DNA of 64,000 nucleotides from Syntrophobacterales bacterium. Lineage in GTDB: Bacteria > Desulfobacterota > Desulfobaccia > Desulfobaccales > 0-14-0-80-60-11. The stretch is from assembly GCA_037388025.1 (NCBI GenBank), contig JARRKO010000039.1:10295-74294 (forward strand). The letters run 5' to 3'. Of this stretch, positions 6,884 to 59,131 are shown in pieces. The position numbers were made by a program, and so were the translations under genes. How positions within the stretch are numbered: the first letter of the stretch is position 1; the number at the start of each line of letters is the position of its first letter. The notes under the pieces were generated by a model, which saw only the letters and a list, made by a program, of their open reading frames with translations, had not been told where the DNA came from and ran no database searches.

Positions 6884-6905
6884 CTTTTTCTTTGAACTTT
6901 GAACC
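6884..6905. repeat. Heptad tandem repeat (TTTGAAC units)
   Basis: ctttttc tttgaac tttgaac. The 16-mer CTTTGAACTTTGAACC is identical to 58577-58592. Confidence 0.8.
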
Positions 6906-6912
6906 AAAACGC

Positions 6913-6990
6913 GGGGGCGTAGTTCAGATTGGTTAGAACGCCGGCCTGTCACGCCGGAGGTCGCGAGTTCAAGTCTCGTCGTCCCCGCCA
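6913..6990 (+). tRNA. tRNA-Asp (anticodon GTC), CCA encoded
   Basis: Manual cloverleaf: acceptor GGGGGCG/CGTCCCC, D arm GTTC..GAAC, anticodon stem CCGGC/GCCGG with loop CTGTCAC, T arm GCGAG-TTCAAGT-CTCGT, discriminator G, then CCA. Confidence 0.9.
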
Positions 6991-7043
6991 TTCACTAATT
7001 GCCAGCCTTTGCTCCTCTGTGATCCCAGATCGCACGTCTGGCT

Positions 7044-7459
7044 TCACCAGGAGCGCTTCGGGTAAATGCCTCGGGTGGGGGTAGTTGGAGGAGATACGTC
7101 TTCTGACCAGGATCGGTCCACTGCCTTGAGGTAATCCCTTCTCCCTTTGCCTACCAAGCGGTTGTTTTGAAAAACCAAGGGCGTGTAGCCCCCCCGCACG
7201 GTATCGCTCTCCGGGGATAATCCATGTTGTGAGTGCGGTAAAAGTACAGGAGAAAGTGTCCCCCCCGAAAGTTCCCTTCTTCCTTGATCTGGGGGGCGCC
7301 CATAATGCCCTCCACTTCCTCCCGACTCATCCCCAACTTCACTCCCTGCTCGCGAAAATACGTGGAAAAGATTTCTTTTTTGGGCCATTGAGTGAGGATT
7401 TTTTGCCCACAGCCACAGACCAGAGGAAAGACGATCAGCACCAGGGAAAGCCAGGACAT
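7044..7459 (-). pseudogene. Small lipoprotein (BamE/SmpA-OmlA- or DUF3192-like), apparently frameshifted
   Basis: Frame 1 (7459 down to about 7215) gives a signal peptide with lipobox (LVCGC) and GMSREEVEGIMGAPQ...LLYFYRTHNMDY. The family-like C-terminus (TPLVFQNNRLVGKG..DYL) continues only in the -1 frame, which ends at 7044. The switch is near the GGGG run at 7213-7216. Confidence 0.45.
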
Positions 7460-7757
7460 GGAGTTCTCCAGAGAAAAGCATTTTTCTCAATATAATGCCG
7501 GGTCAGGTGGGCGTCAACCTAAACCCGGCGTCCATCGACTGGAGAAAAATGGCATTTCTGATTTTTCCAATCTGATCGGCACCCTTGGCAAGCCCCCCGG
7601 ACTGGAAGCGGCACCCAATTAAAAAGCCTCTGTTCTCTGATGGTGACAATATCCTCCTGGCTTGAGAGTCTAGACTTAATCAGGGAAAGACCCAGACTTT
7701 ACCGGGGTGAGACTTTCCCACCCAGGCGGAAATTTTTTCCGACCCTCCTTTTTTCCT

Positions 7758-7958
7758 TCAATTAGGCGTGACTTCACAAACCGGGGAATCCAGGGGCTGG
7801 CCGAAGGAGTCTTTCCCATTCAAGGTCCGGGTGCGATAAAAAGTCTTGAGACGCTGGCGAATGGCCAGGCCCTCCTTCCCCATCTTGGCTAAGATGTGCT
7901 CGGTCAACGGCGCCAGATCCTCATGAGCCAGAACAGTGGTCCGTTTGTTGCGTTTCAT
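7758..7958 (-). CDS. Putative ribbon-helix-helix (CopG/Arc-like) small protein
   Basis: GGAGGGA SD before ATG at 7958. N-terminus MKRNKRTTVLAHEDLAPLTEHILAKMGKEGLAIRQRL fits a strand-helix-helix pattern. Weak call. Confidence 0.3.
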   Translation of the reverse strand: MKRNKRTTVLAHEDLAPLTEHILAKMGKEGLAIRQRLKTFYRTRTLNGKDSFGQPLDSPVCEVTPN

Positions 7959-8081
7959 CGTGGTCCCTCCACAGATATTTTGGTTCATGAACATTCAAAT
8001 TTGGTGCCACTTTGTTGTAAGGAGATTTATTTCTGTGGCAAGGTGTTTCGTGAGGTCCGCCCTAAAGCACGGGTTGGAAAG

Positions 8082-8474
8082 TTTTCTGTTTTCGGTTTTC
8101 GGTTCTCTGTAGTACTGTCTCAAAACCAAAAAAGCCTGGTGGCACAGGTGTCTTCACCTGTGCACTCTGGAATTTTCGAGCCGAGGCGTGATAATAGGCA
8201 ATTTTAGGGCGTGCCGTGCACGCCAAGCGGCCACGGGCCGCTAATAATGTTGGTGCGAATCTGGCCCCAAAATTTTATAAGGGCGGGTTTGAAACCCGCC
8301 CCTACAGGATCGCTACTGTTTTCGGTTTTCCCTAGCATTCTCCCATGAGCCGCCGCTATCGCAAAACCAGGAAAAGGTTGGTAGGGCGGGCGTCCCGCCC
8401 GCCATTTTGGAGCGCGGAGCGCACTCTAATATTCATTTGAACTCAAAACTCAAAACTCGAAACTTGAGCTTTTC
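8082..8474. repeat. Composite intergenic repeat cluster: heptad arrays plus at least five different GC-rich hairpins
   Basis: Heptads at 8082-8109 (TTTTCGG type), 8319-8332 and 8440-8467 (AACTCAA type). Hairpins: GCACAGGTG/CACCTGTGC 8142-8163; GGCGTGC/GCACGCC 8208-8224; GCGGCC/GGCCGC 8227-8241; palindrome GGGCGGGTTTGAAACCCGCCC 8281-8301; GGGCGGG-cgt-CCCGCCC 8384-8400. GGAGCGC occurs twice at 8409-8422. Confidence 0.85.
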
Positions 8475-8545
8475 CAGGCAGAAAATTGGCGCTATTCACC
8501 AGGGAAGGTCAGAATGTCAGCTGTGACCACAGATATGAAAAAAAC

Positions 8546-19770: not shown

Positions 19771-20478
19771 ATGGGTCCCCCGGCTCTCCTGGATAAAACG
19801 TACAACACCATAATCACTAAACTGGTGGAAACCGGCCAAGCCCCTCATTATACCGAGATTGCCTCGGCATTGGGGGTCTCTATGGAAGAGGGCCGCAGGG
19901 CTCTCCATGAACTGATGTCCGCCGGTGTGCTGGGCATGTGGCTGTTTCCGGATACGGATTATATCAGCAGCTTTGCGCCCTTTAGCAACCTCCCCACCCA
20001 GTATCGCCTCACCATAGCGGGTGAACAAAAATGGTTCGCCCAGTGAGGTTTCGAGGCGCTGGCAGTATGCTGGCTTTTTCCCGGCAAACCAGTGCAGATC
20101 ACCGCTCCTTGCCTTGATTGTGGCTTACCGCTGCAGGTGGAGATGCAAGACGGCCGGGTCATAACCACCACTCCGGAGGGCATCATTGCTTATGTGGCCA
20201 TCCCCTTCTCCCGATGGCTGGAGCGGCTGCCCCATGCCTGAAGCACCATGAATCTCTTCCGGTCGGAAGAGCATATCCGGAACTGGGCTCAATTTGATCC
20301 CGCCACCGAGGAAGGCATTCTGCCACTGGCAGACCTGGTGAAGATATTTTCCGGCAATTTTTTCCGCCAACGGCTGGACCCGGATTACGCGTCCCAGAGT
20401 AAACAATACCTGGGTGAATTTCTGGCAGAGATCGCGGCAGTTGCCAAAACGCGGCCTTTTTGGCGACTAAGGCCATAA
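19771..20478 (+). CDS. MerB-family (alkylmercury/organomercurial lyase-like) protein, predicted selenoprotein with two in-frame UGA codons (20044-20046, 20239-20241)
   Basis: Track ORFs 19771-20046 and 20248-20478 and the unlisted stretch between them share one frame, interrupted only by two TGA codons. AAGGAGG SD lies 8 nt before 19771; there is none before 20248. Merged 235-aa product: wHTH N-terminus, WFAQ-U-GFEAL (compare MerB YAWC96ALD99TL) and PHA-U-STMNLFRS..W (compare SFC159CHVHFFAS..W). Hairpins follow both TGAs. Confidence 0.6.
20058..20074 (+). promoter_or_regulatory. SECIS-like hairpin 1 (moderate)
   Basis: GCUGGC-AGUAU-GCUGGC: 6 bp including two G-U pairs. Begins 11 nt after UGA 20044-20046. 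The loop contains GU. Confidence 0.4.
20254..20271 (+). promoter_or_regulatory. SECIS-like hairpin 2 (strong)
   Basis: CUCUUCC-GGUC-GGAAGAG: perfect 7-bp stem with a GGUC tetraloop. Begins 12 nt after UGA 20239-20241. Confidence 0.65.
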
Positions 20479-20636
20479 TGAGGGTCAGGAGACTATGTGG
20501 AAAAATCGAGGGTGGAGAACCGTTCTTGTAACACATCCACATCCCATCCCCACCCCGGTAGCGCGGGCTTCCAACCTGATTACTATCGAATCAAAATATT
20601 GTGTTAGCACCGTCAACCAATAAAACTTTCTAAATT

Positions 20637-21667
20637 ATGCGAGCCATCACTGGTCAACTAACACCTGAAATTTCAGAATTTATTGGTAAACTTTCAGTTG
20701 CCAAAGCCGATGCATTTCCGGTGTCATCGTTTCAAGAAATTATGCGTCTTGTCGCACGATTATCATATATGAATAAAGACCTAAAATTTATAGAGGAGAC
20801 CGTGTTAAACGTATTGAAATGGATATAAGGTTTGACAGGCTGTCGCGGGCTTCTCAGAGACTATCTGATTATCTTGAAACTGAGGGGCTCGAAGGATATC
20901 AAGATGTAAAACGCCGCCGTTATATTCAATGGAGTATCATACAACACTACGAGGTTTGCCCAACCCCTTTCCTCGACCTAACACATTCACTAAGAGTAGC
21001 TTGTTCTTTTGCTTTCCTTGACGCAGAGGATTTTGATCCTTATGTTTTCGTATTTGGCCTCCCATACATGACTAATAGAATATCTATTAACTCTGAGCAT
21101 GATATCATTAACGTTCGCCTTTTAAGTATTTGTCCACCTGACGCTTTTAGACCTTACTACCAAGAAGGTTACTTAGTAGGTACCGATGAAATTACCAATG
21201 AATATACTGATAAAACAGAATTAGATTTTAACAGACGTTTAATTGCAAAATTTAAACTTAATAAAGAACATTTTTGGGAGGAAGGTTTTGATGCTATACC
21301 ACAATCTGCGCTATATCCAGATGGAGATCGTGTTAAAGCTATTTGTGAACAAATAGTAATTTATTCTGATACAGAAATCGGACCAGAAATCCTCGGTAGA
21401 TTTCTTCAAGAATGGACTGATATAGAGAATCTCGTGTTAAGCTTTGCCCGCCAGAGGCGGGATAAAGTGTACTCAATCCGGGAAGCTATTAACTTTTTGT
21501 CAAGAGCTGAGATTCTATCATCTGATGTCCAAGAAAGACTCACAAATCTTAGACAATTAAGAAATCGTGTAGTTCACTACCCAAAAGAATTGAACGTTCA
21601 AGATTTGGCAAATGGATTTGACGAAATAGCCAATTTAAAAAATAAATTAAAAAAATTGCATTTTTAA
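20637..21667 (+). CDS. FRG-domain protein with C-terminal HepT-like HEPN domain; apparent -1 frameshift near 20783-20786
   Basis: AT-rich. FRG core IIQHYEVCPTPFLDLTHSLRVACSFAF and RPYYQEGYL. The name-giving motif (KIYRGD) lies in-frame upstream of ATG 20819 but after a stop; it continues the 63-aa ORF 20637-20828 if a -1 shift occurs at CTAAAATTT. The C-terminus has LRQLRNRVVHY (Rx4H, HepT/DUF86-like). Confidence 0.6.
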
Positions 21668-21694
21668 AACTGATTCTTCGTTAAAATAACTTCC

Positions 21695-22627
21695 TTGACT
21701 CTAAACCAGAAGATGCATAGAAGAAAATTTTTAAAACATTTGGTATGTGGGCTGGCCGCGGGCTGGGCCGGGGGCCGCCTGTTCTGGCCGCGCTGGGCCG
21801 AGGCCACCACCCCGGCCATCTCCCTAGCCCTCCTGGCCGACCCCCACCTGATGGACGGGAACGACCGGCGTGCCGAGGCCCTATCTTTGGCCCGGGCGGT
21901 GGCGGAAATCAAGTCCCACAAGCCGCCCCCGCATCTGGTGCTGTTTGCCGGCGACCTGGCCCACGACGGCAACCCTGACGCCCTGGCCCTGGGGGAGGAA
22001 ATCCTCTCGGATCTTCCCATGCCGGTGCTGGCGGTGCGGGGCGAAGGGGATGGCCGCTCAGCAAAAGGCCAGGCCGGCTGGAGACTCTTCAGCCAGGGCC
22101 GCTTCGTTCACGACTGCGATGGCATCAATCTCCTCGGCCTGGACACCGGTTGGCAGGACACCCCGGCAGGTCCGGGCTTCACCTTGGGAGAGACCCAACA
22201 CCGTTGGCTGGCCCGCGTCCTATCCGGGCTGGACCCGGCCAAACCGCTGGTCATCCTGTCCCATGCCCCCCTGACCCCCATCTTCCGTCCCTGGGGGCAG
22301 TGGACCGTGGACAGCGGCCCTCTAATAGACCGACTCTCCCAATTCCACCAGGTCCATTGCTGCCACGGCCATGTCCATCACGGCGGCTGGTCGGCGGGAG
22401 CGGGCCTCGGGGTGGAAAATTTCGGCCATGGTCGAATCCTGAAAGCCGCCAACCGCCAACCCCTTTCTCACTTAGCCTTACCAGCCACATCCTGGCCTTT
22501 ACCTCACCCTCTAAAAGGAACACCGAGAAAGCTGCGACCTGGGTTGGGTCCTCGTGGCTGCGGCTGGGCTCTTTTGAATACCGGAGGTCAATCATGTAAG
22601 CTTAAGCAAATTTTCTGGGAGGCCTGA
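21695..22627 (+). CDS. Metallophosphoesterase with twin-arginine (Tat) signal
   Basis: MHRRKFLKHL..AAGWAGG Tat-like leader. Calcineurin-like motifs (ADPHL, GDLAHDG, HAPL, GHVHH). Confidence 0.75.
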   Translation: MTLNQKMHRRKFLKHLVCGLAAGWAGGRLFWPRWAEATTPAISLALLADPHLMDGNDRRAEALSLARAVAEIKSHKPPPHLVLFAGDLAHDGNPDALALGEEILSDLPMPVLAVRGEGDGRSAKGQAGWRLFSQGRFVHDCDGINLLGLDTGWQDTPAGPGFTLGETQHRWLARVLSGLDPAKPLVILSHAPLTPIFRPWGQWTVDSGPLIDRLSQFHQVHCCHGHVHHGGWSAGAGLGVENFGHGRILKAANRQPLSHLALPATSWPLPHPLKGTPRKLRPGLGPRGCGWALLNTGGQSCKLKQIFWEA

Positions 22628-28512: not shown

Positions 28513-28536
28513 GATGGTTCTTCATAAAATTTTTTA

Positions 28537-28560
28537 CCAAAAACCGAAAACTGAAAACCG
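28537..28560. repeat. Heptad tandem repeat (CCGAAAA type, reverse complement of TTTTCGG)
   Basis: ccaaaaa ccgaaaa ctgaaaa ccg, directly upstream of the radical SAM gene. Confidence 0.8.
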
Positions 28561-39062: not shown

Positions 39063-40103
39063 ATGCGTTATCTAAAATTAGGCAAAACCGGGTTGGAAGT
39101 CTCGGAGGTGGGGTTTGGCGGCATTCCCATCATCCGGCTGTCCATGGAGGAGGCCGTGGCGGTGCTGCGCCGGGCCTTGGAGCGGGGGGTTACCCTGTTC
39201 GATACCGCCAATCTCTACATGGACAGCGAGGACAAGTTCGGCCGGGCCCTGGCGGGGGAGCGCCAGCGATTGGTCCTGGCCACCAAAAGCATTAAAAGGG
39301 ATCGGGCCGGGGTAGAGGCCGACATCCACCAGAGTCTTACGAAAATGCGCACCGATTACCTGGACCTCTTTCAGTTCCACCAGGTTTCCCAGGAAGAAGA
39401 TGTCAACGCCATTACCGGCCCGGACGGGGCCATGGAAGGGGTGGTGCGTGCCCAGGAGGCCGGCAAGATTCGCCATATCGGCGTGACCTCCCATAGTATC
39501 ACGATGGCGCAACGCCTGGTGAAAACGGGGCTTTTTGCCACCATCCAGTTTCCCTTCAGTTTCGTAGAGGAGGCCGCGGCGGCAGAGCTTTTCCCCCTGG
39601 CCCGGGAGCAAAACCTGGGAATTCTGGCCATGAAGCCCTTTTGCGGCGGGCTGGTGGACCGGGCCCGGGTGGCCTTCGCCTATCTGCGCCAGTTTCCGGA
39701 CGTCATTCCCCTGCCCGGCTGGGACACGGTGGCGGGGGTGGACGAGGTGCTGGATCTCTATGCACAGGAAAACGTGGTCACCCCGGAGGACCGGGCCGCA
39801 TGGGTCCGCTACCGCGAGGAGTTGGGGGACAAATTCTGCCGGCGCTGCGAGTATTGCCAGCCCTGCCCCCAGGGCGTCAAAATCACTCCGGCCATGCTCT
39901 ACGGCATCGTGGCCCACCGCATGGGGCCGGAAAAGGCCGCCAAGTTTGCCGCCCCGATCATGGAGACCGTGAAGGAATGTATTGAATGCGGGGAGTGCGT
40001 AGAGCGTTGCCCCTATGGCCTCCCCATCCCGGAGACCATCCAGCACCACCTGGCCCTGTTTGAGGAACATTGCCGGGCCGCTGGGAAAACCAATGATCAG
40101 TGA
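39063..40103 (+). CDS. Aldo/keto reductase with C-terminal 4Fe-4S (ferredoxin-type) domain
   Basis: AKR N-terminal text (LGKTGLEVSEVGFGG) plus C-terminal CxxCxxC...CP motifs (CRRCEYCQPCP, CIECGECVERCP). Confidence 0.85.
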   Translation: MRYLKLGKTGLEVSEVGFGGIPIIRLSMEEAVAVLRRALERGVTLFDTANLYMDSEDKFGRALAGERQRLVLATKSIKRDRAGVEADIHQSLTKMRTDYLDLFQFHQVSQEEDVNAITGPDGAMEGVVRAQEAGKIRHIGVTSHSITMAQRLVKTGLFATIQFPFSFVEEAAAAELFPLAREQNLGILAMKPFCGGLVDRARVAFAYLRQFPDVIPLPGWDTVAGVDEVLDLYAQENVVTPEDRAAWVRYREELGDKFCRRCEYCQPCPQGVKITPAMLYGIVAHRMGPEKAAKFAAPIMETVKECIECGECVERCPYGLPIPETIQHHLALFEEHCRAAGKTNDQ

Positions 40104-40175
40104 TCAGTGGTTAGTAAATCAAAAGAATCCTGTCGTTGACTACTGATATCTGATTACTGGCCACTGATTTCTCGG
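40094..40175. repeat. Heptad tandem repeats (TGATCAG / TACTGAT types)
   Basis: tgatcag tgatcag tggttag ... tactgat atctgat tactggc cactgat. The first block starts inside the last codons of the AKR gene. Confidence 0.8.
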
Positions 40176-40317
40176 GTTATTCGCTGACTCTCAGCCGATT
40201 TTCCTTGACAGCATAAAAATAGTTATGCAATATTAAAAACTTGAAGTAACGTATTAAGCGTCTCAGCAGAGGTAAATCGAAAAAAGTTTGTATGGAAAAC
40301 AGTTGATGATTAAAGCG

Positions 40318-40362
40318 GCATCTGGATGCCCCCCGGGGACTTCCGAGATGCCTTTTTTATTG
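40318..40362 (+). promoter_or_regulatory. Long imperfect hairpin plus T6 run directly upstream of the thrS start (terminator/attenuator-like)
   Basis: GGCATCT...AGATGCC outer stem enclosing a GC-rich inner stem, followed by TTTTTTATT. Ends 12 nt before ATG 40374. Confidence 0.4.
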
Positions 40363-45986: not shown

Positions 45987-46058
45987 GGGGCCTCCAGGGA
46001 ATTGAATGAAATGTGGGGGAGGGGGCCAGGGGCCCTTGCCCTACCGCCGACATTTGTC

Positions 46059-46109
46059 GGGAGCACAGGCTTCCAGCCTATGCCACACAGGCAAGATGCC
46101 TGTGCTCCC
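46059..46109. repeat. GC-rich hairpin element (GGGAGCACAGGC ... GCCTGTGCTCCC)
   Basis: 12-bp outer inverted repeat. The inner part resembles the CACGGGCT-tcc-AGCCCGTG family and includes CACAGGCA-aga-TGCCTGTG. Confidence 0.8.
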
Positions 46110-46185
46110 GGAAGGAAAAAGGGCAATGGCTTGAGGTACTAACAACAGGCCACTGCCCTCTTTAGTCCTTATATCTGTTTTCACC

Positions 46186-47742: not shown

Positions 47743-48483
47743 ATGACGCGACTGCCCCGGCAACTGGAAGACCTGGCCAGGGTCCTCACCTATCTGTTCT
47801 GCCACCGGCCGGACGAATTCGGTCTGGTGCTGGACCCTGAGGGGTTTGTCCCGGTCAAGCAGCTTCTGCAGGCCCTGGCGGCGGAGCCGGGCTGGGGACA
47901 CGTCCGCCGCCACCACCTGGAGCAGTTAGCCGGCCTGCTTCACCCTCCCCGCTTTGAGCTGGCAGAGGACCGTTTCCGTTGTTTGACCCCGGGTCCGGCC
48001 CAGCTCCGCCAACCCGGGGAAGAACTACCGGCGCTGCTGTATATAGCCATTCCCGCTAAAGCCCATGAGCCGGTTTTTGCCGCGGGCTTGAAGGCCCCCC
48101 GGGGGCAGGAGCTTATCCTGGCCGACACCCCGGAGCTGGCCGTGAAGCTGGGCCGCCGACGCAGCCCCGAGCCCATTTTGGTCACGGTGCAGGCCCAGGC
48201 CGCCACCCGGACGGGTGTTACCTTGGACAAGTACGGCGAGCACCTGTATCTGGCCCGGGAAGTTCCCCGAAAATTCCTGCAACTGGCCACCCCGACCCCC
48301 CAACCGGAAAAACCCAAGCCGGAAAAGGCCGCGCCGCCTCCCCGCCCCCTCTCCGGCACCGTGGTCCTGGACCTCCCCGAGTTCCTGGGAAAGCAAACTC
48401 GGGGCAAAAGCAAGGGCAGAAAGGACGAACCGGCCTGGAAGTCCGGAGCCCGGGCCCTGCGCCGGCAGCGCCGTAAAAAATAG
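47743..48483 (+). CDS. Tpt1/KptA-like (RNA 2'-phosphotransferase fold) protein with basic C-terminal tail; catalytic residues apparently not conserved
   Basis: N-terminal LARVLTYLFCHRPDEFGLVLDPEGFVPVKQLL parallels LS..LRHRPE.LGL.LD..GWV. The later blocks lack the Arg/His of the catalytic tetrad. Confidence 0.45.
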   Translation: MTRLPRQLEDLARVLTYLFCHRPDEFGLVLDPEGFVPVKQLLQALAAEPGWGHVRRHHLEQLAGLLHPPRFELAEDRFRCLTPGPAQLRQPGEELPALLYIAIPAKAHEPVFAAGLKAPRGQELILADTPELAVKLGRRRSPEPILVTVQAQAATRTGVTLDKYGEHLYLAREVPRKFLQLATPTPQPEKPKPEKAAPPPRPLSGTVVLDLPEFLGKQTRGKSKGRKDEPAWKSGARALRRQRRKK

Positions 48484-48558
48484 CTTTGAGCTTTGAGCTT
48501 TGAGCTTTGCGCTATAAGCTTTAAGCTATGAGCTGTAGGTCTTGAGTTTCGAGTTTTC
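48482..48558. repeat. Longest heptad array in the window (11 units, AGCTTTG type)
   Basis: agctttg x4, then cgctata agcttta agctatg agctgta ggtcttg agtttcg agttttc. Begins at the stop codon of the preceding gene and runs to the 5' end of the VOC gene. Confidence 0.9.
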
Positions 48559-48576
48559 ACTTCAATCGTTACCTTT

Positions 48577-49789: not shown

Positions 49790-51658
49790 ATGCTGGAGAT
49801 CAAAAAAGTCGAAAGCGCCACCCTGAGTCCTCCGCAGATTGCTGATATCCAGGACATTTGTTCCCGCTTCAGCCGCATCAAAGGCGGCCTCCTGCCTGCG
49901 CTGCACGCGGTGCAGAGCGTCTGCGGCAATTGGCTTCCCATGGAAGCCCTGCAACTGGTCTCCCGGGAGTTTAACCTGCCCTATGCCTATCTGTATGGCG
50001 TCTTGAGCTTTTATACCATGTTCGCCACCCAGCCCCGGGGTAAGCACATCATCCGCCTGTGCGAATCCCCGCCCTGTCACGTCATGGGTGCGGAAAGCCT
50101 CCAGGAGGTGTTGGAAAAGGAACTGGGCATCCACGTGGGCCAGACCACCGAGGACGGCCTCTTCACCTTGGAGCACACCGCCTGCCTGGGAGTGTGTGAA
50201 ATCGCCCCGGCTATGCAAATCAATGAAGTGGTGCACGGCCGCCTCACCGCGGACTCGGTGAAGCAAATCCTGGCCGACTACCGGGCGGGCAAGGCCCCAG
50301 ATTACCGCACCATCCGGCGTACCACCAATCCCTTGAGCGACTATCCGGCCAGCCCCGACGAGGTGACCCTGCTCAGAAACGTCGACCAGATCGATCCTAT
50401 GAGCATCGATGACTATCTGGCCCAGGGCGGCTATGAGGGCCTCAAGCAGGTGGTCACCACCATGACCGATGAAGAGGTGGTGGAATTGGTGAAAGCCTCA
50501 GGCCTGCGGGGCCGGGGCGGCGCCGGCTTCCCCACCGGCCTCAAGTGGTCTTTCACCCGACCCTCCCCCATCAAGCCCAAGTACATCGTCTGCAACGCCG
50601 ACGAAGGGGAGCCCGGCACCATCAAGGATCGTTACCTGATGGAAGGCGACCCCCACCGGGTCCTGGAAGGCATAGCCATCACCGGCTATGCCGTGGGCGC
50701 CAATCAGGCCTATATCTACGTCCGGGGCGAATATTATCTCAGCATGCTCCGCCTGCAAAACGCCATTGACCAAGCCATGGACAAAGGCTATTTGGGGGAC
50801 AACCTCTTCGGCACCGACTTTTCCTTTCGCATTCAGATACAAACCGGCGGCGGCTCCTATGTCTGCGGTGAGGAAACCGCGCTCATCGAGTCCATTGAAG
50901 GCAAACGGGGCTATCCGCGGGTCAAGCCCCCCTTCCCCGGCCAGGTGGGGGTGTGGAACAAACCCACCATCGTCAACAATGTGGAGTCCATGGCCAGTGT
51001 GCCGGATATCATCGTCAAGGGCGCGGAGTGGTACGCGGCCAAAGGCACCGAGGACTCCAAGGGTACCAAGATCCTCCAGGTGGTGGGCCAGGTCAACAAG
51101 CCCGGCATCGTGGAGGCCAATCTGGGCATGCCCCTGTCTGACCTGATCGACAAGATCGGGGGCGGCGTGCGCCAGGGCCGGAGAATCAAGGCGGTCCAAC
51201 CCGGCGGCGCGGCCTCGGGCTTCATCCTCCCAGAGCACGTCGATACGCCCCTGGAATATAAAGCCATGATGGAGGTGGGGGGCGCCTTGGGTTCCGGCAC
51301 CATGCTGGTCCTGGACGATACCACCTGTGTGGTGGACGTGGTCCGGTGCTTGATGTACTTCTTCCAGCACGAGTCCTGCGGCTTCTGCCTGCCCTGCCGC
51401 CGGGGCACCCGGGTGCTCTATGAGCTGGTCTGCAAGGTGGCCGAAGGCAGAGGCGAAGAGGCGGATTTGGATCGCCTGCTGACCTTGTCCAAAACCATGG
51501 TGGACAGCACCAACTGCGCTCTGGGCTGGAGCCCCCATTCGTTCCTTAAGACCACCATCGAGCGCTTTAGGGACGAGTGGCTGGCCCATGTAGCGGGAAA
51601 CTGCCCATTAGGCGTATGTAAAAAGGAAGAAGCCCCGGCTCAGGCTGCGGGGGAATAA
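49790..51658 (+). CDS. nuoF: NADH-quinone oxidoreductase NuoE-NuoF fusion protein
   Basis: N-terminal NuoE-like 2Fe-2S thioredoxin-fold text (CESPPCHVMG...CLGVCEIAPA) followed by NuoF motifs (GLRGRGGAGFPTG, CNADEGEPGT, ESCGFCLPCR). Confidence 0.88.
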   Translation: MLEIKKVESATLSPPQIADIQDICSRFSRIKGGLLPALHAVQSVCGNWLPMEALQLVSREFNLPYAYLYGVLSFYTMFATQPRGKHIIRLCESPPCHVMGAESLQEVLEKELGIHVGQTTEDGLFTLEHTACLGVCEIAPAMQINEVVHGRLTADSVKQILADYRAGKAPDYRTIRRTTNPLSDYPASPDEVTLLRNVDQIDPMSIDDYLAQGGYEGLKQVVTTMTDEEVVELVKASGLRGRGGAGFPTGLKWSFTRPSPIKPKYIVCNADEGEPGTIKDRYLMEGDPHRVLEGIAITGYAVGANQAYIYVRGEYYLSMLRLQNAIDQAMDKGYLGDNLFGTDFSFRIQIQTGGGSYVCGEETALIESIEGKRGYPRVKPPFPGQVGVWNKPTIVNNVESMASVPDIIVKGAEWYAAKGTEDSKGTKILQVVGQVNKPGIVEANLGMPLSDLIDKIGGGVRQGRRIKAVQPGGAASGFILPEHVDTPLEYKAMMEVGGALGSGTMLVLDDTTCVVDVVRCLMYFFQHESCGFCLPCRRGTRVLYELVCKVAEGRGEEADLDRLLTLSKTMVDSTNCALGWSPHSFLKTTIERFRDEWLAHVAGNCPLGVCKKEEAPAQAAGE

Positions 51659-51687
51659 AGATAATCATCTCCTGGTTCCCTCATTAA

Positions 51688-51891
51688 ATGGGAAACAACT
51701 GGATAACCGGGGTCATGGCGAGTTACCTTATCAAAGTGGAGAAGACGAACGGCAAATATTCCGCCACTTGTCCGGATCTGCCAGGTTGTGTGGCCACCGG
51801 CAGGACCCGGGGAGAACTTCTTCAACGCATGTCGGAAGCACTGAAGCTACACCTGGAAGGTCTGCGGGAAGACAAGTTGCCTCAGCCGTAA
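51688..51891 (+). CDS. HicB-like antitoxin-fold protein (UPF0150), orphan
   Basis: YLIKVEKTNGKYSATCPDLPGCVATGRTRGELLQRMSEALKLHLEGL matches the HicB N-domain pattern. The start may be Met at 51715. Confidence 0.6.
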   Translation: MGNNWITGVMASYLIKVEKTNGKYSATCPDLPGCVATGRTRGELLQRMSEALKLHLEGLREDKLPQP

Positions 51892-51972
51892 TCCAGGGGC
51901 TTTGCGGCATATATCTCTATTCATCTTTAAGTCGAACCCTCTGATTCCCGAGTTGGGAAGCTGATGGGAAAT

Positions 51973-52000
51973 TTGAATAAAGCAACCTTACCCCTATAAT
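51973..52000 (+). promoter_or_regulatory. Candidate sigma70-type promoter immediately upstream of nuoA
   Basis: TTGAAT, 16-nt spacer, TATAAT. The -10 element ends 12 nt before the nuoA ATG, implying a very short leader. Confidence 0.35.
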
Positions 52001-52012
52001 AAAGGTTTCTTT

Positions 52013-52369
52013 ATGCTCATTGACTACTTACCTGTCCTGATCTACATGGTCATCGCCGTCGGCCTGGTGGTGCTGATTGTGGGCATGTCCGAGTTCCTCG
52101 GCAAAAAGAAGCACACCTACCAGAAGGACCTGGCCTACGAGTGCGGCATGGACCCCATCGGCGACGCCCGCCACCGCTATGCGGTGCGCTTTTACGTCAT
52201 CGCCATGTTCTTCATCGTGTTCGACATTGAAGCCATCTTCCTCTACCCCTGGGCCGTGGTCTTCAAGCCCCTGGGCTGGTTCGGTTTCGCGGAGATGGCT
52301 GTCTTTATCTTTATCCTGGTAGTGGGTTTGGCCTACGTCTGGGGTAAAGGCGCCTTGGAGTGGGAGTGA
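52013..52369 (+). CDS. nuoA: NADH-quinone oxidoreductase subunit A
   Basis: 118 aa, three TM helices, YECGMDP motif. Confidence 0.9.
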   Translation: MLIDYLPVLIYMVIAVGLVVLIVGMSEFLGKKKHTYQKDLAYECGMDPIGDARHRYAVRFYVIAMFFIVFDIEAIFLYPWAVVFKPLGWFGFAEMAVFIFILVVGLAYVWGKGALEWE

Positions 52370-52378
52370 TAAAGACGG

Positions 52379-52392
52379 TTTTCTGTTTTCGG
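52379..52392. repeat. TTTTCGG-type heptads (nuoA-nuoB spacer)
   Basis: GGTTTTCTGTTTTCGGTAAA: one mismatch to the 20-mer found at 54755 and 59052. Confidence 0.85.
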
Positions 52393-52455
52393 TAAATAAA
52401 AAAGGACCCAATTATCCTGCGCTAAAAACCAACAACGGTTTTTTGGAGTATCTGC

Positions 52456-53429: not shown

Positions 53430-53526
53430 CAGTCAGCAGCCAGTAATCAGTATTGGGATGGTTTAGAGAGTTAGTCAAAATTTTTTCATCAACGAATAAG
53501 TCTTGTAGCTCATAGCTCATAGCTTT
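53424..53526. repeat. Heptad arrays in the nuoC-nuoD spacer
   Basis: gattagc agtcagc agccagt aatcagt (53424-53451) and tagctca tagctca tagcttt (53506-53526). Confidence 0.8.
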
Positions 53527-53540: not shown

Positions 53541-54734
53541 ATGGAACAGGTTAAACCCATCCCCCAAACGGAAATCATGGTCCTGAACGTGGGCCCCCAG
53601 CACCCCAGCACCCACGGTGTTCTCCGGGTGTTGGTGGAGCTGGACGGCGAGGTCATGGTCAGGGCTGAACCGGATATCGGCTATCTCCACCGCGGCATTG
53701 AGAAGCTGTGCGAAAACCGCACCTACCACAAGTGCCTGCCCCTCATGAACCGGGTGGATTATTTGGCCGGTGAGGTGAATAACTTCGGCTTCTGCCTGGC
53801 GGTGGAAAAGCTGCTCGGCATCGAGGTGCCCAAGCGGGCTCAGTACATCCGGGTGATCATGGCCGAATTCACCCGCATCGCCTCCCACATCTTCTGGCTG
53901 GGCACCCATGCCCACGACCTGGGAGCCATGACGCCATTGTTTTACGGTTTCCGTGAACGGGAAAAGATCATGGACCTGTGCGAAATGGTCTCCGGCGCCC
54001 GCATGTTTCCCCTTTATTTCCGCATCGGGGGCCTGGCCGCGGATCTACCCGAGGGCTTTTTGGCCAAGGCCATGGAATTCGTCAAAGAATTCCCGGACAA
54101 GTGGAAGGACTACGACAACCTGCTCACCAAGAATGAAATCTGGAAGGAACGCACCATCGGGGTGGGCGTCATGACCGCGGATGAGGCCCTGGATTGGGGC
54201 TGGTCCGGCCCCATGGCCCGGGGTTCGGGCGTCGATTGGGACCTGCGCCGGGATAACCCCTATTCCAGTTATGAAGACTTTGACTTTGTAGTACCCCTGG
54301 GCACGAAAGAAGGGGACACCTACTCCCGCTACCTGGTGCGCATGCAGGAGATGCTGCAGAGCAACCGCATCCTGCGCCAGGCCCTGGAAAAGCTGCCTGA
54401 GGGCGATATCAAGGTGGACGACCCCCGGGTAAGTCTTCCCCCGAAGGACAAGGTTTACAGCGATATCGCCGCGCTCATCAGCCATTTTAAGCTTATCCAG
54501 GAGGGTATCAAACCTCCGACCGGCGAAATCTACCAGGCCATCGAAGCTCCCAAGGGGGAACTGGGCTTTTACCTGATCAGCAACGGCACGGGCCAGCCTT
54601 TCCGGGTGAAGATCAGGGCGCCTTCCTTCGTGGTGCTGAATTCGTTGGGGAAATTGTCGGAGGGGCGCCTCTTGGCCGACCTCATCGCGCTCATCGGCAC
54701 CATGGACATCGTGCTGGCGGATGTGGATAGGTAG
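53541..54734 (+). CDS. nuoD: NADH-quinone oxidoreductase subunit D
   Basis: 397 aa. GPQHPSTHGVLR and RIRAPSF-like (VKIRAPSF) motifs. Confidence 0.93.
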   Translation: MEQVKPIPQTEIMVLNVGPQHPSTHGVLRVLVELDGEVMVRAEPDIGYLHRGIEKLCENRTYHKCLPLMNRVDYLAGEVNNFGFCLAVEKLLGIEVPKRAQYIRVIMAEFTRIASHIFWLGTHAHDLGAMTPLFYGFREREKIMDLCEMVSGARMFPLYFRIGGLAADLPEGFLAKAMEFVKEFPDKWKDYDNLLTKNEIWKERTIGVGVMTADEALDWGWSGPMARGSGVDWDLRRDNPYSSYEDFDFVVPLGTKEGDTYSRYLVRMQEMLQSNRILRQALEKLPEGDIKVDDPRVSLPPKDKVYSDIAALISHFKLIQEGIKPPTGEIYQAIEAPKGELGFYLISNGTGQPFRVKIRAPSFVVLNSLGKLSEGRLLADLIALIGTMDIVLADVDR

Positions 54735-54753
54735 GGCGGGCGTCCCGCCCGCC
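54730..54753. repeat. 24-nt hairpin element identical to 8380-8403
   Basis: GGTAGGGCGGGCGTCCCGCCCGCC is a perfect match at both loci. Here it starts within the last codons and stop of nuoD. Confidence 0.9.
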
Positions 54754-54756
54754 GGG

Positions 54757-54853
54757 TTTTCGGTTTTCGGTAAAGAGACTCGGGAGGAAAGCTGATAGCT
54801 GACTGATAACTGCTGAGCACTGACAGCTGACAGCTGATAGCCGATAGCTCAAA
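54757..54853. repeat. Heptad arrays in the nuoD-nuoG spacer (TTTTCGG x2, then 9 units of GCTGATA type)
   Basis: ttttcgg ttttcgg (54757-54770); gctgata gctgact gataact gctgagc actgaca gctgaca gctgata gccgata gctcaaa (54791-54853). Confidence 0.9.
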
Positions 54854-54876: not shown

Positions 54877-57525
54877 ATGGTAAACCTCACCATCGACGGC
54901 CGGGCCATTCAAGCGGAGCCAGGGAAAACCATCTTAGAGGTCGCCCAAGAGAACGGCATTTTCATTCCCTACCTCTGCTACCATCCGGCCCTGAAGCCCA
55001 TCGGTTCCTGCCGCATCTGCGTGGTGGAAGTAACCCCCGGACCGCCCCGACCCCTCCCCGCCTGCGCCACCTATGTGGCCGAAGGTCAGGAGGTGGTCAC
55101 CAACTCAGAGCGGGTCCAGGCCATCCGCCAAGAGCTGATGAAGCTAGTCCTCATCAACCATGCCCTGGAATGCCCCATCTGTGACAAGGGCGGCGAATGC
55201 GAACTTCAGGATCTCACCCACGCCCTGGGCATCGGCGAAGTAGATTATGAAGCCATCAAGCTGCCCCCCAACATCGACTATGCCTCCCGCCTCATCGAGC
55301 GCCACCCAGACCGCTGCGTCACCTGCGGCCGCTGTGTGCGCATTTGCCGGGACCACGTGGGGGCCATGGCCATTAACTTCATGGACCGGGGCTATTTCAC
55401 CGAGTTGGGGTCGGGGCTGGTGCCCCTGGACTGCGAGTTCTGCGGATCCTGCGTGGACATTTGCCCGGTGGGGGCCCTCATCAACACGGTCTTTAAGTAC
55501 AGGGCCCGGGCCTGGGAAGGAGAGAAGACCGAGATGGTCTGTTCCTTCTGCGGCGGCGGCTGCACTTACTCCGTGCACACGGTGGACAACCGTATCCTGC
55601 GGGTGGTGAACGAAGACACCGTGGTCCTGTGCGGTCGGGGCCGTTTCGGCTTCCCCGTGGTGGAATCCGAGGACCGTCTTAAGACCCCTCTCATTAAAGA
55701 GAATGGCGATTTCCGGGAGGCCACCTGGGATGAAGCCATGGATTTCGCGGCCTCGCGCCTCCAGGAGATTATGGACGAAGCGGGCGCGGGCGCAGTATAT
55801 GGCGTGGGTTCTCCCCGGGCCACCAACGAGGCCAATTACCTCTTCCAGAAACTTTTCCGGTCAGTGCTGGGCACCAACAACCTGGACAACCCGGCCCGGC
55901 TCCACTATCTCAAGGCCGTCAGCGCGCTGGCCCAGGTCTTCGGCTGGCCGCAGCTTGCCAAGCTCGAAGGCCCCAAGGCCAAGTCCGAGCCTTATCACTC
56001 GTCGTTCAACATCACCGAGGGGTCCGAGGGCAGCGGCTTCAGCTCTGTCCTGGGAACCTTGAGTGAACTTCCCAAGGCTGACCTGGCCCTGGTGATCGGC
56101 ACCGACCTCACCCCGGAAATGCCACCCCTGGGGTGGGCCCTGATGGCGGCCCGGCAAAACGAGGCTTTCAAGCTCATCGTGGCCAACCCCCGCCAGACCA
56201 AGTTCGACCGCTACGCCGATCTCAGTCTGCGCTATAAGCCCGGGGCCGAACGGATGGTCATTGCCGGCCTGATCAAAGCCCTGTTGGGGGCGAATCCCGA
56301 GCTGGCCCCGGCCATCCAGGCCAAGGGGTGGGAGGATTTTCAGGAGATCCCCAAGAAATACGGCCCCAAGGAGTGGGCCACCCGCTCCGGGCTGGAAGAA
56401 TTCGCTCCCTTTGAAGAAGCCGCGCAGCTCCTGCTCCAGGCCCAGTCCCCGGCCATCATCTTCGGCACCGAGCTTCTGGGGCAGGATAAAGGCGATCAGA
56501 CCGCCCTGGCCCTGGCCGACCTTTTTCTCATCATCGGCCGGCCTGACAGTCCGGGCAGCAAACTGTATCCCATTGCGGAGAAGGCCAACACCCGAGGCGC
56601 CTGTGAACTGGGCGTCCTCCCCGACCGGCTGCCCGGGTATCTGCCCCTCAACGCCGACAATGCCGCGGCTTTCTTCGGCAGCAAGCCCCCGGTTTCCGAG
56701 CCCGGCCCCACACTGCTAGAGGCCCTGGACCTTCTGGAGCAGGGTGACCCCGCCGCGCCCCAGGCCATCTATGCCCTGGGCGGCGACCTGCTGCGCTGGC
56801 TGCCCAACCGGTCCCGCACGCAAAAGCTGTTGAAAAAGCTTAAGTTCCTGGTGGTGCAGGATGCCTTCCTCACCGACACCGCCAAGCTGGCCGACGTGGT
56901 TTTGCCGGTGGCGGTGCACGCCGAGCAGGAAGGCACCTACCTCAGCAGCGGCGGGCAGTTGGGCGTTTTGGCCCGAGCCCTGAACGGCAACGGCGTGCGC
57001 CCCGACTGGCAAATCATTTGCGATCTGGCCACCCGGCTGGGCTTGCGCATGTCCTATCGCAACCCGGCCCACATCTTCCAGGAACTCTCCAGTCTTATGC
57101 CCTCCTGGGCTGGTCTGGCCCCCAAGCTGGCCCTACCCTGCCCCGCGGTGCAAGCCACCGTTTCTGGTGAGTTCCAACCCTTTGATGTGGACATCAGCCT
57201 GCCGGGACGGCGGCCCCTAGCATTGATTATCGGCAAATCCCTGCAACACTCCGGCTCCTTTACCACCCACGCGCCGGTCGGCACCCTCCAGGTAACCCCG
57301 GGGGCAACCCTGCGGCTCAATCCTGAAGATGCGGCCGGCCTGGAACTCGAGCCGGGAGAAGAGGTGAAGGTGATTTCTTCCCACGGCGAAGTGGCGGCCA
57401 CGGTGCAATTGAGCCTGGACTTGCCGCCGGGAGTCGCTTTTCTGCCGGAGCATTTCGGCGAACCGGCGGCGAACAAGCTTACCCTCAATTCCAACTTGGT
57501 ACGGGTAACTATTCAGAAGGCATAA
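54877..57525 (+). CDS. nuoG: NADH-quinone oxidoreductase subunit G (molybdopterin-oxidoreductase-like)
   Basis: N-terminal 2Fe-2S and 4Fe-4S Cys motifs (CRICVVEV, HALECPICDKGGECELQ, CVTCGRCVRIC), then an MopB-like domain. 882 aa. Confidence 0.88.
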   Translation: MVNLTIDGRAIQAEPGKTILEVAQENGIFIPYLCYHPALKPIGSCRICVVEVTPGPPRPLPACATYVAEGQEVVTNSERVQAIRQELMKLVLINHALECPICDKGGECELQDLTHALGIGEVDYEAIKLPPNIDYASRLIERHPDRCVTCGRCVRICRDHVGAMAINFMDRGYFTELGSGLVPLDCEFCGSCVDICPVGALINTVFKYRARAWEGEKTEMVCSFCGGGCTYSVHTVDNRILRVVNEDTVVLCGRGRFGFPVVESEDRLKTPLIKENGDFREATWDEAMDFAASRLQEIMDEAGAGAVYGVGSPRATNEANYLFQKLFRSVLGTNNLDNPARLHYLKAVSALAQVFGWPQLAKLEGPKAKSEPYHSSFNITEGSEGSGFSSVLGTLSELPKADLALVIGTDLTPEMPPLGWALMAARQNEAFKLIVANPRQTKFDRYADLSLRYKPGAERMVIAGLIKALLGANPELAPAIQAKGWEDFQEIPKKYGPKEWATRSGLEEFAPFEEAAQLLLQAQSPAIIFGTELLGQDKGDQTALALADLFLIIGRPDSPGSKLYPIAEKANTRGACELGVLPDRLPGYLPLNADNAAAFFGSKPPVSEPGPTLLEALDLLEQGDPAAPQAIYALGGDLLRWLPNRSRTQKLLKKLKFLVVQDAFLTDTAKLADVVLPVAVHAEQEGTYLSSGGQLGVLARALNGNGVRPDWQIICDLATRLGLRMSYRNPAHIFQELSSLMPSWAGLAPKLALPCPAVQATVSGEFQPFDVDISLPGRRPLALIIGKSLQHSGSFTTHAPVGTLQVTPGATLRLNPEDAAGLELEPGEEVKVISSHGEVAATVQLSLDLPPGVAFLPEHFGEPAANKLTLNSNLVRVTIQKA

Positions 57526-57529
57526 GACG

Positions 57530-58555
57530 ATGAACCTGCTCCTGCTGATTATTCTCACGGCCCTGAAGATCACCGTAGTATTTGTGGTCTTCTTGACAGT
57601 GATCGCTTACACGGTGCTCATGGAGCGGAAAGTCCTGGGGTTCATCCAGCTCCGTTACGGCCCCAACCGGGTGGGACCCTGGGGACTGTTGCAACCGCTG
57701 GCCGACCTCCTCAAGCTCCTGTTTAAGGAGGACTTCACTCCGCCGGGTGCCAACCGGGTGCTATTCACTTTGGCCCCCATAATCACCGCAGTCACCGCGT
57801 TTCTGCCCTTTGCGGTGATTCCCTTCGCCAGTAACATCCTGCCCGCCAAGATCACTATTTATGGGCAAACCATCGATCTGACCGTGGCGAACCTGAATCA
57901 GGGCGTCATTGCCGACATGAACGTGGGACTCCTCTACGTCTTTGCCATGGGCTCCCTGGCGGTTTACGGCGCGGTGCTGGGTGGCTGGGCCTCCAACAAC
58001 AAGTACTCCCTGTTGGGGGGCCTGCGCCTTTCCGCCCAGATGGTAAGCTACGAGCTGGCCCTGGGCCTTTCTGTCATCGGCGTCCTCATGTTGGCCGGCT
58101 CCCTGAGCCTGGTGAAGATCGTGGAAGCCCAGAAGTCCATGTGGTTCATTGTCTATCAGCCCCTGGGTTTTTTACTGTTCCTCACCGCCGCGTTCGCCGA
58201 GTGCGCCCGCACTCCCTTTGACCTGATCGAGTGCGAAAACGAGCTGGTGGCCGGCTTTCAAACCGAATATAGCTCCATGAAATGGGCCTTGTTTATGCTG
58301 GGGGAATACTGCCATATCATTGTGGCCAGCGCGCTGACCGTTACCCTCTTTTTAGGCGGCTGGCAAGGCCCCTTTCTCCCGCCCATTGTTTGGTTCACCC
58401 TGAAGACTTTCGCTCTGGTGTTTTTCTTCATGTGGGTGCGGGGGACCTTTCCGCGGTTCCGCTTTGACCAGCTTATGCAACTGGGCTGGAAGGTGCTTCT
58501 CCCCCTGGCTCTGCTCAACATCGTGGCCACCGGAGTTGTGATGGTGATGCTGTAG
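57530..58555 (+). CDS. nuoH: NADH-quinone oxidoreductase subunit H
   Basis: 341 aa, polytopic. LMERKVLGFIQLRYGPNRVG signature. Confidence 0.93.
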   Translation: MNLLLLIILTALKITVVFVVFLTVIAYTVLMERKVLGFIQLRYGPNRVGPWGLLQPLADLLKLLFKEDFTPPGANRVLFTLAPIITAVTAFLPFAVIPFASNILPAKITIYGQTIDLTVANLNQGVIADMNVGLLYVFAMGSLAVYGAVLGGWASNNKYSLLGGLRLSAQMVSYELALGLSVIGVLMLAGSLSLVKIVEAQKSMWFIVYQPLGFLLFLTAAFAECARTPFDLIECENELVAGFQTEYSSMKWALFMLGEYCHIIVASALTVTLFLGGWQGPFLPPIVWFTLKTFALVFFFMWVRGTFPRFRFDQLMQLGWKVLLPLALLNIVATGVVMVML

Positions 58556-58573
58556 ATTTTAAGCTGCTAACAT

Positions 58574-58608
58574 CAACTTTGAACTTTGAACCTTGAACCT
58601 TGAACGAG
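58574..58608. repeat. Heptad array in the nuoH-nuoI spacer (GAACCTT type)
   Basis: caacttt gaacttt gaacctt gaacctt gaacgag. Shares a perfect 16-mer with 6890-6905. Confidence 0.85.
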
Positions 58609-58615
58609 GCCATAT

Positions 58616-59047
58616 ATGATTATCCCGCTGCTCAAAGGACTGGCCACCACCATCAGGCACTGCTTCAGCAAGCCTGTCACCCTCCAGTACCCTGAGGTCA
58701 AGCGGCCGGTTTATCCCCGTTTTCGGGGCCACCCGGAACTGGTGGTGAACGAGGATGGCAACCGCCGTTGCGTGGCCTGCACGCTGTGCAAGGTGGTCTG
58801 CCCCAGCAATGCCATCAAGGAGATTGTGCCGGCGGAAGGCGAGGAGCACGAGAAATACCCGGTTCAGTTCGTCATCGACCTGACCCGCTGTATTTTCTGC
58901 GGTTTTTGCCAGGAGGCCTGCCCCAAGGCGGCCATCAAACTGAATAACCTGTATGAGTTGGCCCAGTACCAGAAAAGCGTCCTCATCCTCGACATCGACC
59001 GGGCCACCCAGGCCAAGTCGGAAATGCGTATGACGGATTGGCTGTAA
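58616..59047 (+). CDS. nuoI: NADH-quinone oxidoreductase subunit I
   Basis: Two ferredoxin-type motifs (CVACTLCKVVCP, CIFCGFCQEACP). Confidence 0.9.
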   Translation: MIIPLLKGLATTIRHCFSKPVTLQYPEVKRPVYPRFRGHPELVVNEDGNRRCVACTLCKVVCPSNAIKEIVPAEGEEHEKYPVQFVIDLTRCIFCGFCQEACPKAAIKLNNLYELAQYQKSVLILDIDRATQAKSEMRMTDWL

Positions 59048-59051
59048 GGCC

Positions 59052-59131
59052 GGTTTTCGGTTTTCGGTAAAACATTGAATACAATCGCCATGAATAATCA
59101 GCAGAAAACAGCACACACTGAACAGAAAACT
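59052..59131. repeat. Heptad arrays in the nuoI-nuoJ spacer
   Basis: GGTTTTCGGTTTTCGGTAAA (59052-59071, identical to 54755-54774) and atcagca gaaaaca gcacaca ctgaaca gaaaact (59097-59131). Confidence 0.85.

Follow-up and report, generated by a model that had tools for sequence, protein, structure and literature searches.

What are the short arrays of 7-nucleotide (nt) units that occupy many gene spacers in a contig of a Syntrophobacterales bacterium (GenBank assembly GCA_037388025.1, contig JARRKO010000039.1, positions 10,295 to 74,294), and do they form a counterpart of the short tandemly repeated repetitive (STRR) elements of heterocystous cyanobacteria? The 64,000 nt analysed here, hereafter the window, carry such arrays between the genes of a complex I (nuo) operon and at several other sites. 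A reading made from the sequence alone had drawn attention to them, likened them to STRR elements and proposed mRNA processing, protein binding or replication slippage hot spots as their possible role. We find that the period-7 signal is real and statistically solid. The arrays are probably slippage-driven heptanucleotide microsatellites of the STRR-like, or long simple sequence repeat (SSR), class. They gain and lose whole 7-nt units and drift, with rapid turnover, and they are confined to untranslated spacers, including the intercistronic spacers of nuo, where a unit length not divisible by three does no harm.

The excess of period 7 holds under several measures. Tandem Repeats Finder (TRF) returned 40 rows for the window, 13 of which have period 7 and lie at positions listed by the sequence-only reading. 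In a mismatch-tolerant scan, nine arrays of period 7 reached a local score of at least 10, against about 0.1 in dinucleotide shuffles, and periods 4, 5, 8, 10, 11, 13 and 14 gave zero or one array each. Runs of at least 10 exact matches also numbered nine at period 7, zero or one at the other non-multiples of 3 and zero to three at multiples of 3. Across intergenic DNA, the fraction of matches at lag 7 is 0.285, compared with 0.255 in shuffles (z 6.2); lag 14 follows with z 3.5, and every remaining lag stays within |z| <= 2.4. All nine strong arrays fall within the approximately 7.5 kb of non-coding DNA and none within the approximately 56 kb of coding DNA, where period 3 is the only periodicity. 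Two-unit arrays inside open reading frames (ORFs; 22446 and 27869) show no excess over chance. A simple period-7 test was passed by 9 of the 50 spacers (0.5 expected), and the spacer 40104-40325 brings the total to about 10 distinct array-bearing spacers, fewer than the 16 or more first reported. As sources of the arrays, chance and assembly artefact are essentially excluded.

The individual arrays named by the sequence-only reading are all present, at or within 1-3 nt of where it had placed them. Together with one further array, at 53430-53456, they are:

6890 to 6904: 2.1 units of CTTTGAA, 8 nt upstream of the tRNA-Asp gene (6913-6990)
8081 to 8104: 3.4 units of GTTTTCG, in a 1-kb non-coding stretch where hairpins resembling repetitive extragenic palindromes (REPs) are also present
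8316 to 8334: two imperfect units of GTTTTCG, family D2
8440 to 8464: 3.6 units of AACTCAA
28536 to 28560: 3.6 units of ACCGAAA, the reverse complement of the TTTTCGG family, filling the 56-nt spacer between a ClpX-like gene and ahbC
40094 to 40120: 2.3 units of TGATCAG plus degenerate units, overlapping the stop codon of an aldo-keto reductase gene; 5' arm of an inverted pair
40140 to 40175: five degenerate units of TNACTGA; 3' arm, complementary to 40094-40120
48482 to 48558: AGCTTTG array of four perfect and then degenerate units, beginning at the TAG stop codon of a KptA-like gene
52376 to 52440: nuoA-nuoB spacer, two units of CGGTTTT past the stop codon and a degenerate A-rich partner
53430 to 53456: nuoC-nuoD spacer, units CAGTCAG, CAGCCAG and TAATCAG
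53506 to 53526: 2.7 units of TAGCTCA, 16 nt upstream of nuoD
54754 to 54772: 2.4 units of GGTTTTC in the nuoD-nuoG spacer, directly 3' of a REP-like GC hairpin
54790 to 54853: 8.6 to 9 units of AGCTGAY, ending about 24 nt ahead of the nuoG start
58575 to 58608: two units of AACTTTG and two to three of AACCTTG, filling the nuoH-nuoI spacer
59051 to 59069: 2.6 units of CGGTTTT, directly past the nuoI stop

Five spacers of the nuo operon thus carry arrays (A-B, C-D, D-G, H-I and I-J). Outside nuo, arrays are found after the KptA-like gene, after the aldo-keto reductase gene, between the ClpX-like gene and ahbC, before tRNA-Asp, and in the non-coding stretch 7491-8545 (about 1 kb), together with REP-like hairpins. 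The 16-mer CTTTGAACTTTGAACC is common to two of the arrays, with exact copies at 6890 and 58577 as had been reported. The AGCTTTG array had been described as 11 units long; the array itself stands, with its four perfect units followed by degenerate ones, and TRF counts 7.6 copies over 48482-48534. At least eight unit families coexist in the window, and dozens occur in other phyla, with no common motif, a diversity that suggests selection by length and not by a sequence-specific binder. Between genes of the same strand, the TTTTCGG family is found in either orientation. Arrays begin directly at the upstream stop codon or no more than about 25 nt away from it, and they stop 2-32 nt short of the following start codon, with the Shine-Dalgarno sequence outside, a placement that is expected if arrays simply fill spacers.

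One sequence context recurs at stop codons. A 27-nt motif consisting of the stop codon, (A/G)G(A/C)CGG, (TTTTCGG)2 and TAAA lies directly past the stop codons of nuoA, nuoD and nuoI (52370-52396, 54748-54774 and 59045-59071), and copying, convergence and selection are candidate routes to it. Similar motifs follow the stop codons of other spacers in loci L002, L006, L099, L103, L105 and L113.

How the arrays change can be read from independent assemblies of the same species, which were recovered by exact-protein look-ups. Over 15.4 kb, the window and one of these assemblies (L081) are 99.77% identical and differ by seven single-nucleotide polymorphisms and four indels; three of the four indels are located within heptamer arrays, each with a length exactly divisible by 7. 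Compared with the window, L081 has 7 nt more at 52433 in the nuoA-nuoB spacer (CAACGGT duplicated), 14 nt more at 53441 in the nuoC-nuoD spacer (two extra units, CAGCAGC and CAGTAAT) and 7 nt fewer at 53506 upstream of nuoD (one TAGCTCA unit). The contig L082, from an independent metagenome-assembled genome (MAG), reproduces the alleles of the window, and the two haplotypes are therefore real. In L099, at 93% DNA identity, the CGGTTTT array past nuoI (59051) is longer by one unit (+7 nt). The array at 28536-28560 showed no variation in two other assemblies, and an exact-protein look-up with the amidotransferase, made for the region around 8081-8464, gave no match. Among the roles proposed earlier, that of replication slippage hot spots is borne out by the 7-, 14- and 7-nt indels between near-identical strains and by the additional unit at 93% identity, and array lengths compared among strains and relatives show slippage-type variation in exact 7-nt steps. 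A function in mRNA processing or protein binding gained no specific support.

The same spacers turn over between more distant relatives. The nuoH-nuoI spacer is 12 nt long in most of them, including three at 87-91% NuoI identity, and it measures 43-228 nt in the window, L001, L099, L101, L103 and L104, where it is filled with (A/G)GCTTTN arrays; the 125-nt spacer of L105 has units of the GCTGA type in their place. Between nuoC and nuoD, spacer lengths run from 9 to 323 nt. Together with the indels between strains, this turnover identifies the arrays as dispensable, fast-evolving insertions or expansions that change by whole units. One array is found more widely, as (AGCTGAN)n closely precedes the ribosome-binding site of nuoG in at least eight lineages at 66-97% protein identity.

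Larger differences between assemblies of the species were also noticed. Intergenic segments of 110, 197, 141 and 128 nt are missing from the window (at 30489/30490, about 34390, about 35856 and 48567-48569) and present in between two and four further assemblies of this species; they represent either real deletions or assembly collapses. Through the one at 48567, a glyoxalase gene loses its start codon and ribosome-binding site, and a REP-like hairpin and a (GCTCATN)x3 array are absent as well. Relative to window positions 57247-57267, the same-species metagenome assembly L085 has a 21-nt in-frame deletion within nuoG.

The phenomenon extends well beyond this species. The same array scan was applied to loci of other organisms, which were chosen through NuoG and NuoI, so that a nuo-specific association cannot be claimed:

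Desulfobaccales-like relatives: 174 kb scanned, 25 strong period-7 arrays
Acidobacteriota/Terriglobia: 349 kb scanned, 48 strong period-7 arrays
Nitrospirae: 77 kb scanned, 10 strong period-7 arrays
Chloroflexota: 55 kb scanned, 5 strong period-7 arrays
Rhizobiales: 465 kb scanned, no strong period-7 array

Other periods gave zero to seven arrays per group, and arrays also occur outside nuo in the flanks of the fetched loci. The propensity to carry such arrays is lineage-dependent and no cyanobacterial speciality, and their presence in relatives and in other phyla shows that they are not relics of one duplicated segment. In the acidobacterial genome of a Terriglobia MAG (L072, 533-574), there is a (CAACAGT)x6 array, whose unit is presumably identical to that of cyanobacterial STRR3.

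The host, whose genome resembles that of a sulfate reducer, had been guessed to be a non-cyanobacterial anaerobe. In a search of one genome per species, the best match of its NuoG is a Desulfobaccales MAG at 84% identity, which confirms the guess, and the gene content is consistent with a Desulfobaccales placement (ahbC and a match to a Geobacter/Pelobacter-type regulator). Its complex I operon runs nuoEF fusion, HicB-like small ORF, nuoA-B-C-D-G-H-I-J-K-L-M. This order is unusual (49790-52369), as the fused nuoE-nuoF (622 aa) lies upstream of nuoA and not between nuoD and nuoG. The HicB-like antitoxin ORF (67 aa, 51688-51891) stands between the fusion and nuoA, a gene order kept in relatives. 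The window also holds thrS-infC-rpmI-rplT-pheS, ahbC, the ClpX-like ATPase gene and tRNA-Asp. A possible small ORF of about 66 aa on the minus strand (7760-7957, MKRNKRTTVLAHEDL...), with no family match, adjoins the arrays of the long non-coding stretch. Elsewhere, an island of low GC content (20001-22000, ORFs 20637-21667; GC 0.46 against about 0.58, with third-position GC of 0.27-0.30 in the ORFs) suggests recently acquired DNA.

Neighbouring arrays are often arranged as inverted pairs. Among 59 pairs of arrays within 200 nt of each other, 27 are inverted (reverse-complement units, distance <=1) and three are direct, and the random expectation for inverted pairs is 2.8%, or about 1.6 of 59. 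The resulting hairpins fold strongly (z -4 to -15). The clear inverted case in the window, 40094-40120 with 40140-40175, folds at -26.8 kcal/mol (z -4.3). Palindromes such as AAAACCGGTTTT are present at several stop codons. The hairpins are symmetric between strands, with G-U pairs numbering 83 and 87 on the two strands and equal folding energies, which fits an origin at the DNA level. Selection on these hairpins at the RNA level was considered and found unsupported, given the same symmetry of sense and antisense energies and G-U counts.

In the slippage explanation that we favour, slippage during replication, or a comparable misalignment, would produce the unit changes and point mutations would make the units drift; arrays would survive in untranslated DNA only and be purged from ORFs. 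Expression would act merely as a mild filter, with operon spacers preferring orientations that are purine-rich and carry stop codons on the sense strand. The arrays would not be sequence-specific regulatory sites, and effects on mRNA, such as longer spacers and hairpins, would be side effects. As for the inverted pairs, we infer that many arrays may be seeded at short palindromes or hairpins, the arms of which would then expand separately; hairpin-templated copying could be an alternative route to the same architecture.

This need for a seeding step is one of several considerations that weigh against slippage as the explanation. The polymorphism rests on metagenome assemblies and on essentially two haplotypes. 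The occurrence of (AGCTGAN)n upstream of nuoG in at least eight lineages could mean selection for a function, and so could the fact that (CGGTTTT)n recurs right past stop codons in several spacers and more than one species. Slippage by itself gives no reason for units of 7 nt rather than 5, 8, 10 or 11 nt. Deletion constructs in a Nostoc preprint suggest that heptamer repeats can affect expression. Finally, the arrays are biased with respect to strand. Across 125 arrays in nuo spacers, with gene boundaries set by homology, units with a stop codon in the sense strand only outnumber those with one in the antisense strand only by 39 to 15 (p 0.0015), and the sense strand is purine-rich and C-poor. 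An artefact of ORF delimitation was rejected as the source of this bias, which persisted with the homology-defined boundaries; some expression-level filter or selection therefore acts on which arrays persist.

In a rival reading, the arrays would be cis-acting RNA elements of polycistronic mRNAs, serving either as periodic pads for a protein that binds single-stranded RNA and covers about 7 nt (a cold-shock-domain protein, S1 or a CsrA-like binder being candidates) or as stabilizing or processing hairpins that act like REPs, bacterial interspersed mosaic elements (BIMEs) or RNase III sites. The position of the arrays between stop and start codons with the Shine-Dalgarno sequence left free, the sense-strand bias for purine-rich, stop-containing units, the retention of (AGCTGAN)n ahead of nuoG, the recurrent (CGGTTTT)n near stop codons and the strong folding of inverted pairs would all suit such a role. 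Moreover, binding proteins of this kind have been proposed for TAACTGA repeats (MacGregor 2015, PMC4679880), and the Nostoc reporter data hint at effects on expression. We nevertheless regard an RNA function as rather unlikely. Many unrelated unit sequences share one genome, the TTTTCGG family takes both orientations within same-strand gene pairs, arrays come and go among close relatives whose ancestral nuoH-nuoI spacer is 12 nt, copy number differs between 99.8%-identical strains, and the hairpins lack any G-U or energy asymmetry between strands. At its gathering threshold, Rfam matched only tRNA-Asp in the whole window, in agreement with ARAGORN, and terminator-like sites are not clearly enriched (28 against 19.7 +/- 4.5 expected); both results count against RNA elements. 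Arrays were also considered as intrinsic terminators or promoters, and no convincing coincidence emerged except for a weak stem before the CGGTTTT array, at 59035.

The inverted pairs invite another reading, in which they are miniature mobile elements resembling miniature inverted-repeat transposable elements (MITEs) or REP doublets (REPINs), and the single arrays are their decayed halves. The pair architecture is highly non-random, spacers of some lineages have gained blocks of 50-200 nt, and REP-like hairpins share these spacers, two of them identical (8380 and 54730). Yet pairs and array-bearing spacers at different loci have no internal sequence in common, target-site duplications and constant termini were not observed, the units of a single genome vary with the locus, and the polymorphisms are single-unit steps rather than presence or absence of a whole element, all of which makes mobility very improbable. 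We give hardly any credence to a role at the level of double-stranded DNA, whereby A/T-tract units phased every 7 bp would recruit nucleoid or regulatory proteins. Many units are indeed rich in A/T tracts (TTTTCGG, GTTTTTC, AACTCAA, CGAAAAT), the hairpins are strand-symmetric, and the TTTTGAT heptads of the Vibrio cholerae ctxAB promoter provide a precedent. However, most arrays lie within operons, between co-transcribed genes and not at promoters, many units are not A/T tracts (AGCTGAC, TAGCTCA, TGATCAG), and a sense-strand bias is unexpected for such a role. It is, finally, distinctly doubtful that a dedicated, patchily inherited mechanism rather than generic slippage lies behind the 7-nt architecture, be it a polymerase or repair activity that adds 7 nt at hairpins or a binder with a 7-nt footprint, for which a cold-shock-domain-type single-strand-binding protein that maintains the arrays and organizes intercistronic RNA is a candidate. 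This idea arises because strict 7-nt units of almost any sequence, frequent inverted pairs and sense bias within operons recur together in nuo spacers of unrelated phyla, Desulfobaccales, Acidobacteriota, Nitrospirae and Chloroflexota.

Slippage-driven microsatellites thus remain our preferred explanation of the arrays, next to which a separate repeat family (D15), the GC-rich REP-like hairpin GGTAGGGCGGGCGTCCCGCCCGCC, occupies some of the same spacers:

8380 to 8403: GGTAGGGCGGGCGTCCCGCCCGCC, 100% identical to 54730-54753
54730 to 54753: second copy of GGTAGGGCGGGCGTCCCGCCCGCC, spanning the nuoD stop codon (gene end 54734) and abutting the GGTTTTC array

Further GC-rich hairpins of this type lie at 8131-8160, 8283-8303 and 46058-46110 of the window and in the nuo spacers of L001-L010 and L099-L114. 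Among Desulfobaccales-like MAGs, GGTGGGC-N4-GCCCACC(CTACAT) and GCACAGGCTTCCAGCCTGTGC are recurrent motifs. In L006, L007, L010, L111, L112 and L114, the nuoD-nuoG spacer reaches 450-930 nt and holds an extra small ORF with a signal-peptide- or lipoprotein-like N-terminus. In L112, this ORF, which does not occur in the window, is flanked by inverted (CAGCTNT)/(AGCTGAN) arrays.

How do the arrays compare with known repeat systems? REP/BIME and REPIN elements of Enterobacteria and Pseudomonas likewise inhabit intercistronic and 3' operon spacers and form hairpins, and the inverted pairs recall REPIN doublets. REPs are, however, conserved palindromic units of about 35 nt mobilized by REP-associated tyrosine transposases (RAYTs), whereas the arrays have no conserved unit and change in 7-nt steps. 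The sole identically repeated REP-like unit of the window is the separate 24-nt GC hairpin, and no RAYT (TnpA_REP) transposase gene was noticed in the 64 kb. The GGGAATC repeats of Xanthomonas vary extensively between close species and form convergent inverted pairs (Rehm et al. 2015, PMC4692102). Like the arrays of the window, they are intergenic, differ in length and sequence among close relatives at the same gene pairs and are in part inverted. They constitute one dominant G-rich family able to form G-quadruplexes (G4), whereas the window has many families and no G-tracts: TTTTCGG, AGCTTTG, AGCTGAY, AACTTTG, TAGCTCA, AACTCAA and TGATCAG all fall short of a G3-4 tract per unit in at least four units. 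Similarities also exist with the TAACTGA direct repeats of marine Beggiatoaceae, cyanobacteria and Bacteroidetes (MacGregor 2015, PMC4679880) and with the MTYCTGA x5 and GGGACCG x4 elements of Geobacter metallireducens (PMC2700814). All three are likewise intergenic heptamer arrays close to start codons, and the TNACTGA (40140-40175) and ACTGATA/GCTGAYA (54790-54853) arrays of the window resemble rotations of TAACTGA and MTYCTGA. Those genomes have a single dominant heptamer, which suggests one binding factor; in the window, TAACTGA occurs once and never in tandem, with only degenerate relatives present, and neither GGGAATC nor GGGACCG is tandem.

The likeness to cyanobacterial STRR elements holds at the descriptive level: both comprise several families of 7-nt units, dispersed as short intergenic or intercistronic arrays of variable copy number that drift while keeping register. 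We take the canonical STRR1-3 units to be CCCCAGT, TTGGTCA and CAACAGT (Mazel et al. 1990). None of the three has a tandem copy within the window. The host, moreover, is a Desulfobaccales-like anaerobe rather than a heterocystous cyanobacterium, and the arrays of the window are shorter (2-11 units). Nor is their occurrence outside cyanobacteria unexpected, as had been thought. In addition to the heptamer families of Nostoc and Calothrix (STRR, GGGGAYT, TTTTGAA), a heptanucleotide excess has been published for Xanthomonas, Burkholderia, Beggiatoaceae and Geobacter.

The closest parallel is the long-SSR class. As cited in PMC4679880 and PMC4692102, Mrazek et al. 2007 ranked heptanucleotides first in abundance among the long SSRs of most SSR-rich prokaryotic genomes and proposed a slippage model in which the 7-nt unit was ascribed to the footprint of the replicative polymerase. 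As far as the available accounts of this class go (Mrazek, Guo & Shah 2007; Huang & Mrazek 2014), the window likewise shows units of 5-11 nt beyond chance, a dominance of 7 nt and a patchy phylogeny, and it shares with the class a non-coding location and copy-number variation between strains; the intergenic location is also that reported for Xanthomonas and Nostoc (PMC4692102). In the accessible literature on long SSRs, we found no report on the Desulfobaccales lineage, nor on the MAG loci of Acidobacteriota, Nitrospirae and Chloroflexota. What is new here is the evidence for polymorphism in 7-nt steps and the extension of the phenomenon to uncultured anaerobic and soil Desulfobaccales, Acidobacteriota and Nitrospirae. 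Pairs of natural strains, whose loci are nearly identical apart from arrays that differ by exact 7-nt steps, bear on the dominance of 7-nt units in bacterial microsatellites, a question since it was first noted in 2007, and any mechanism must explain the two features quantified above, inverted-pair architecture and sense-strand bias within operons. In practical terms, the arrays lengthen the intercistronic spacers of an essential respiratory operon, constitute hypervariable strain markers and can confuse ORF calling. Lacking the sequence or host features of STRR proper and of TAACTGA, G4, REP and MITE repeats, the window has the general features of the long-SSR class, and its arrays are genuine bacterial microsatellites of a type described before, not a new regulatory or biological system.

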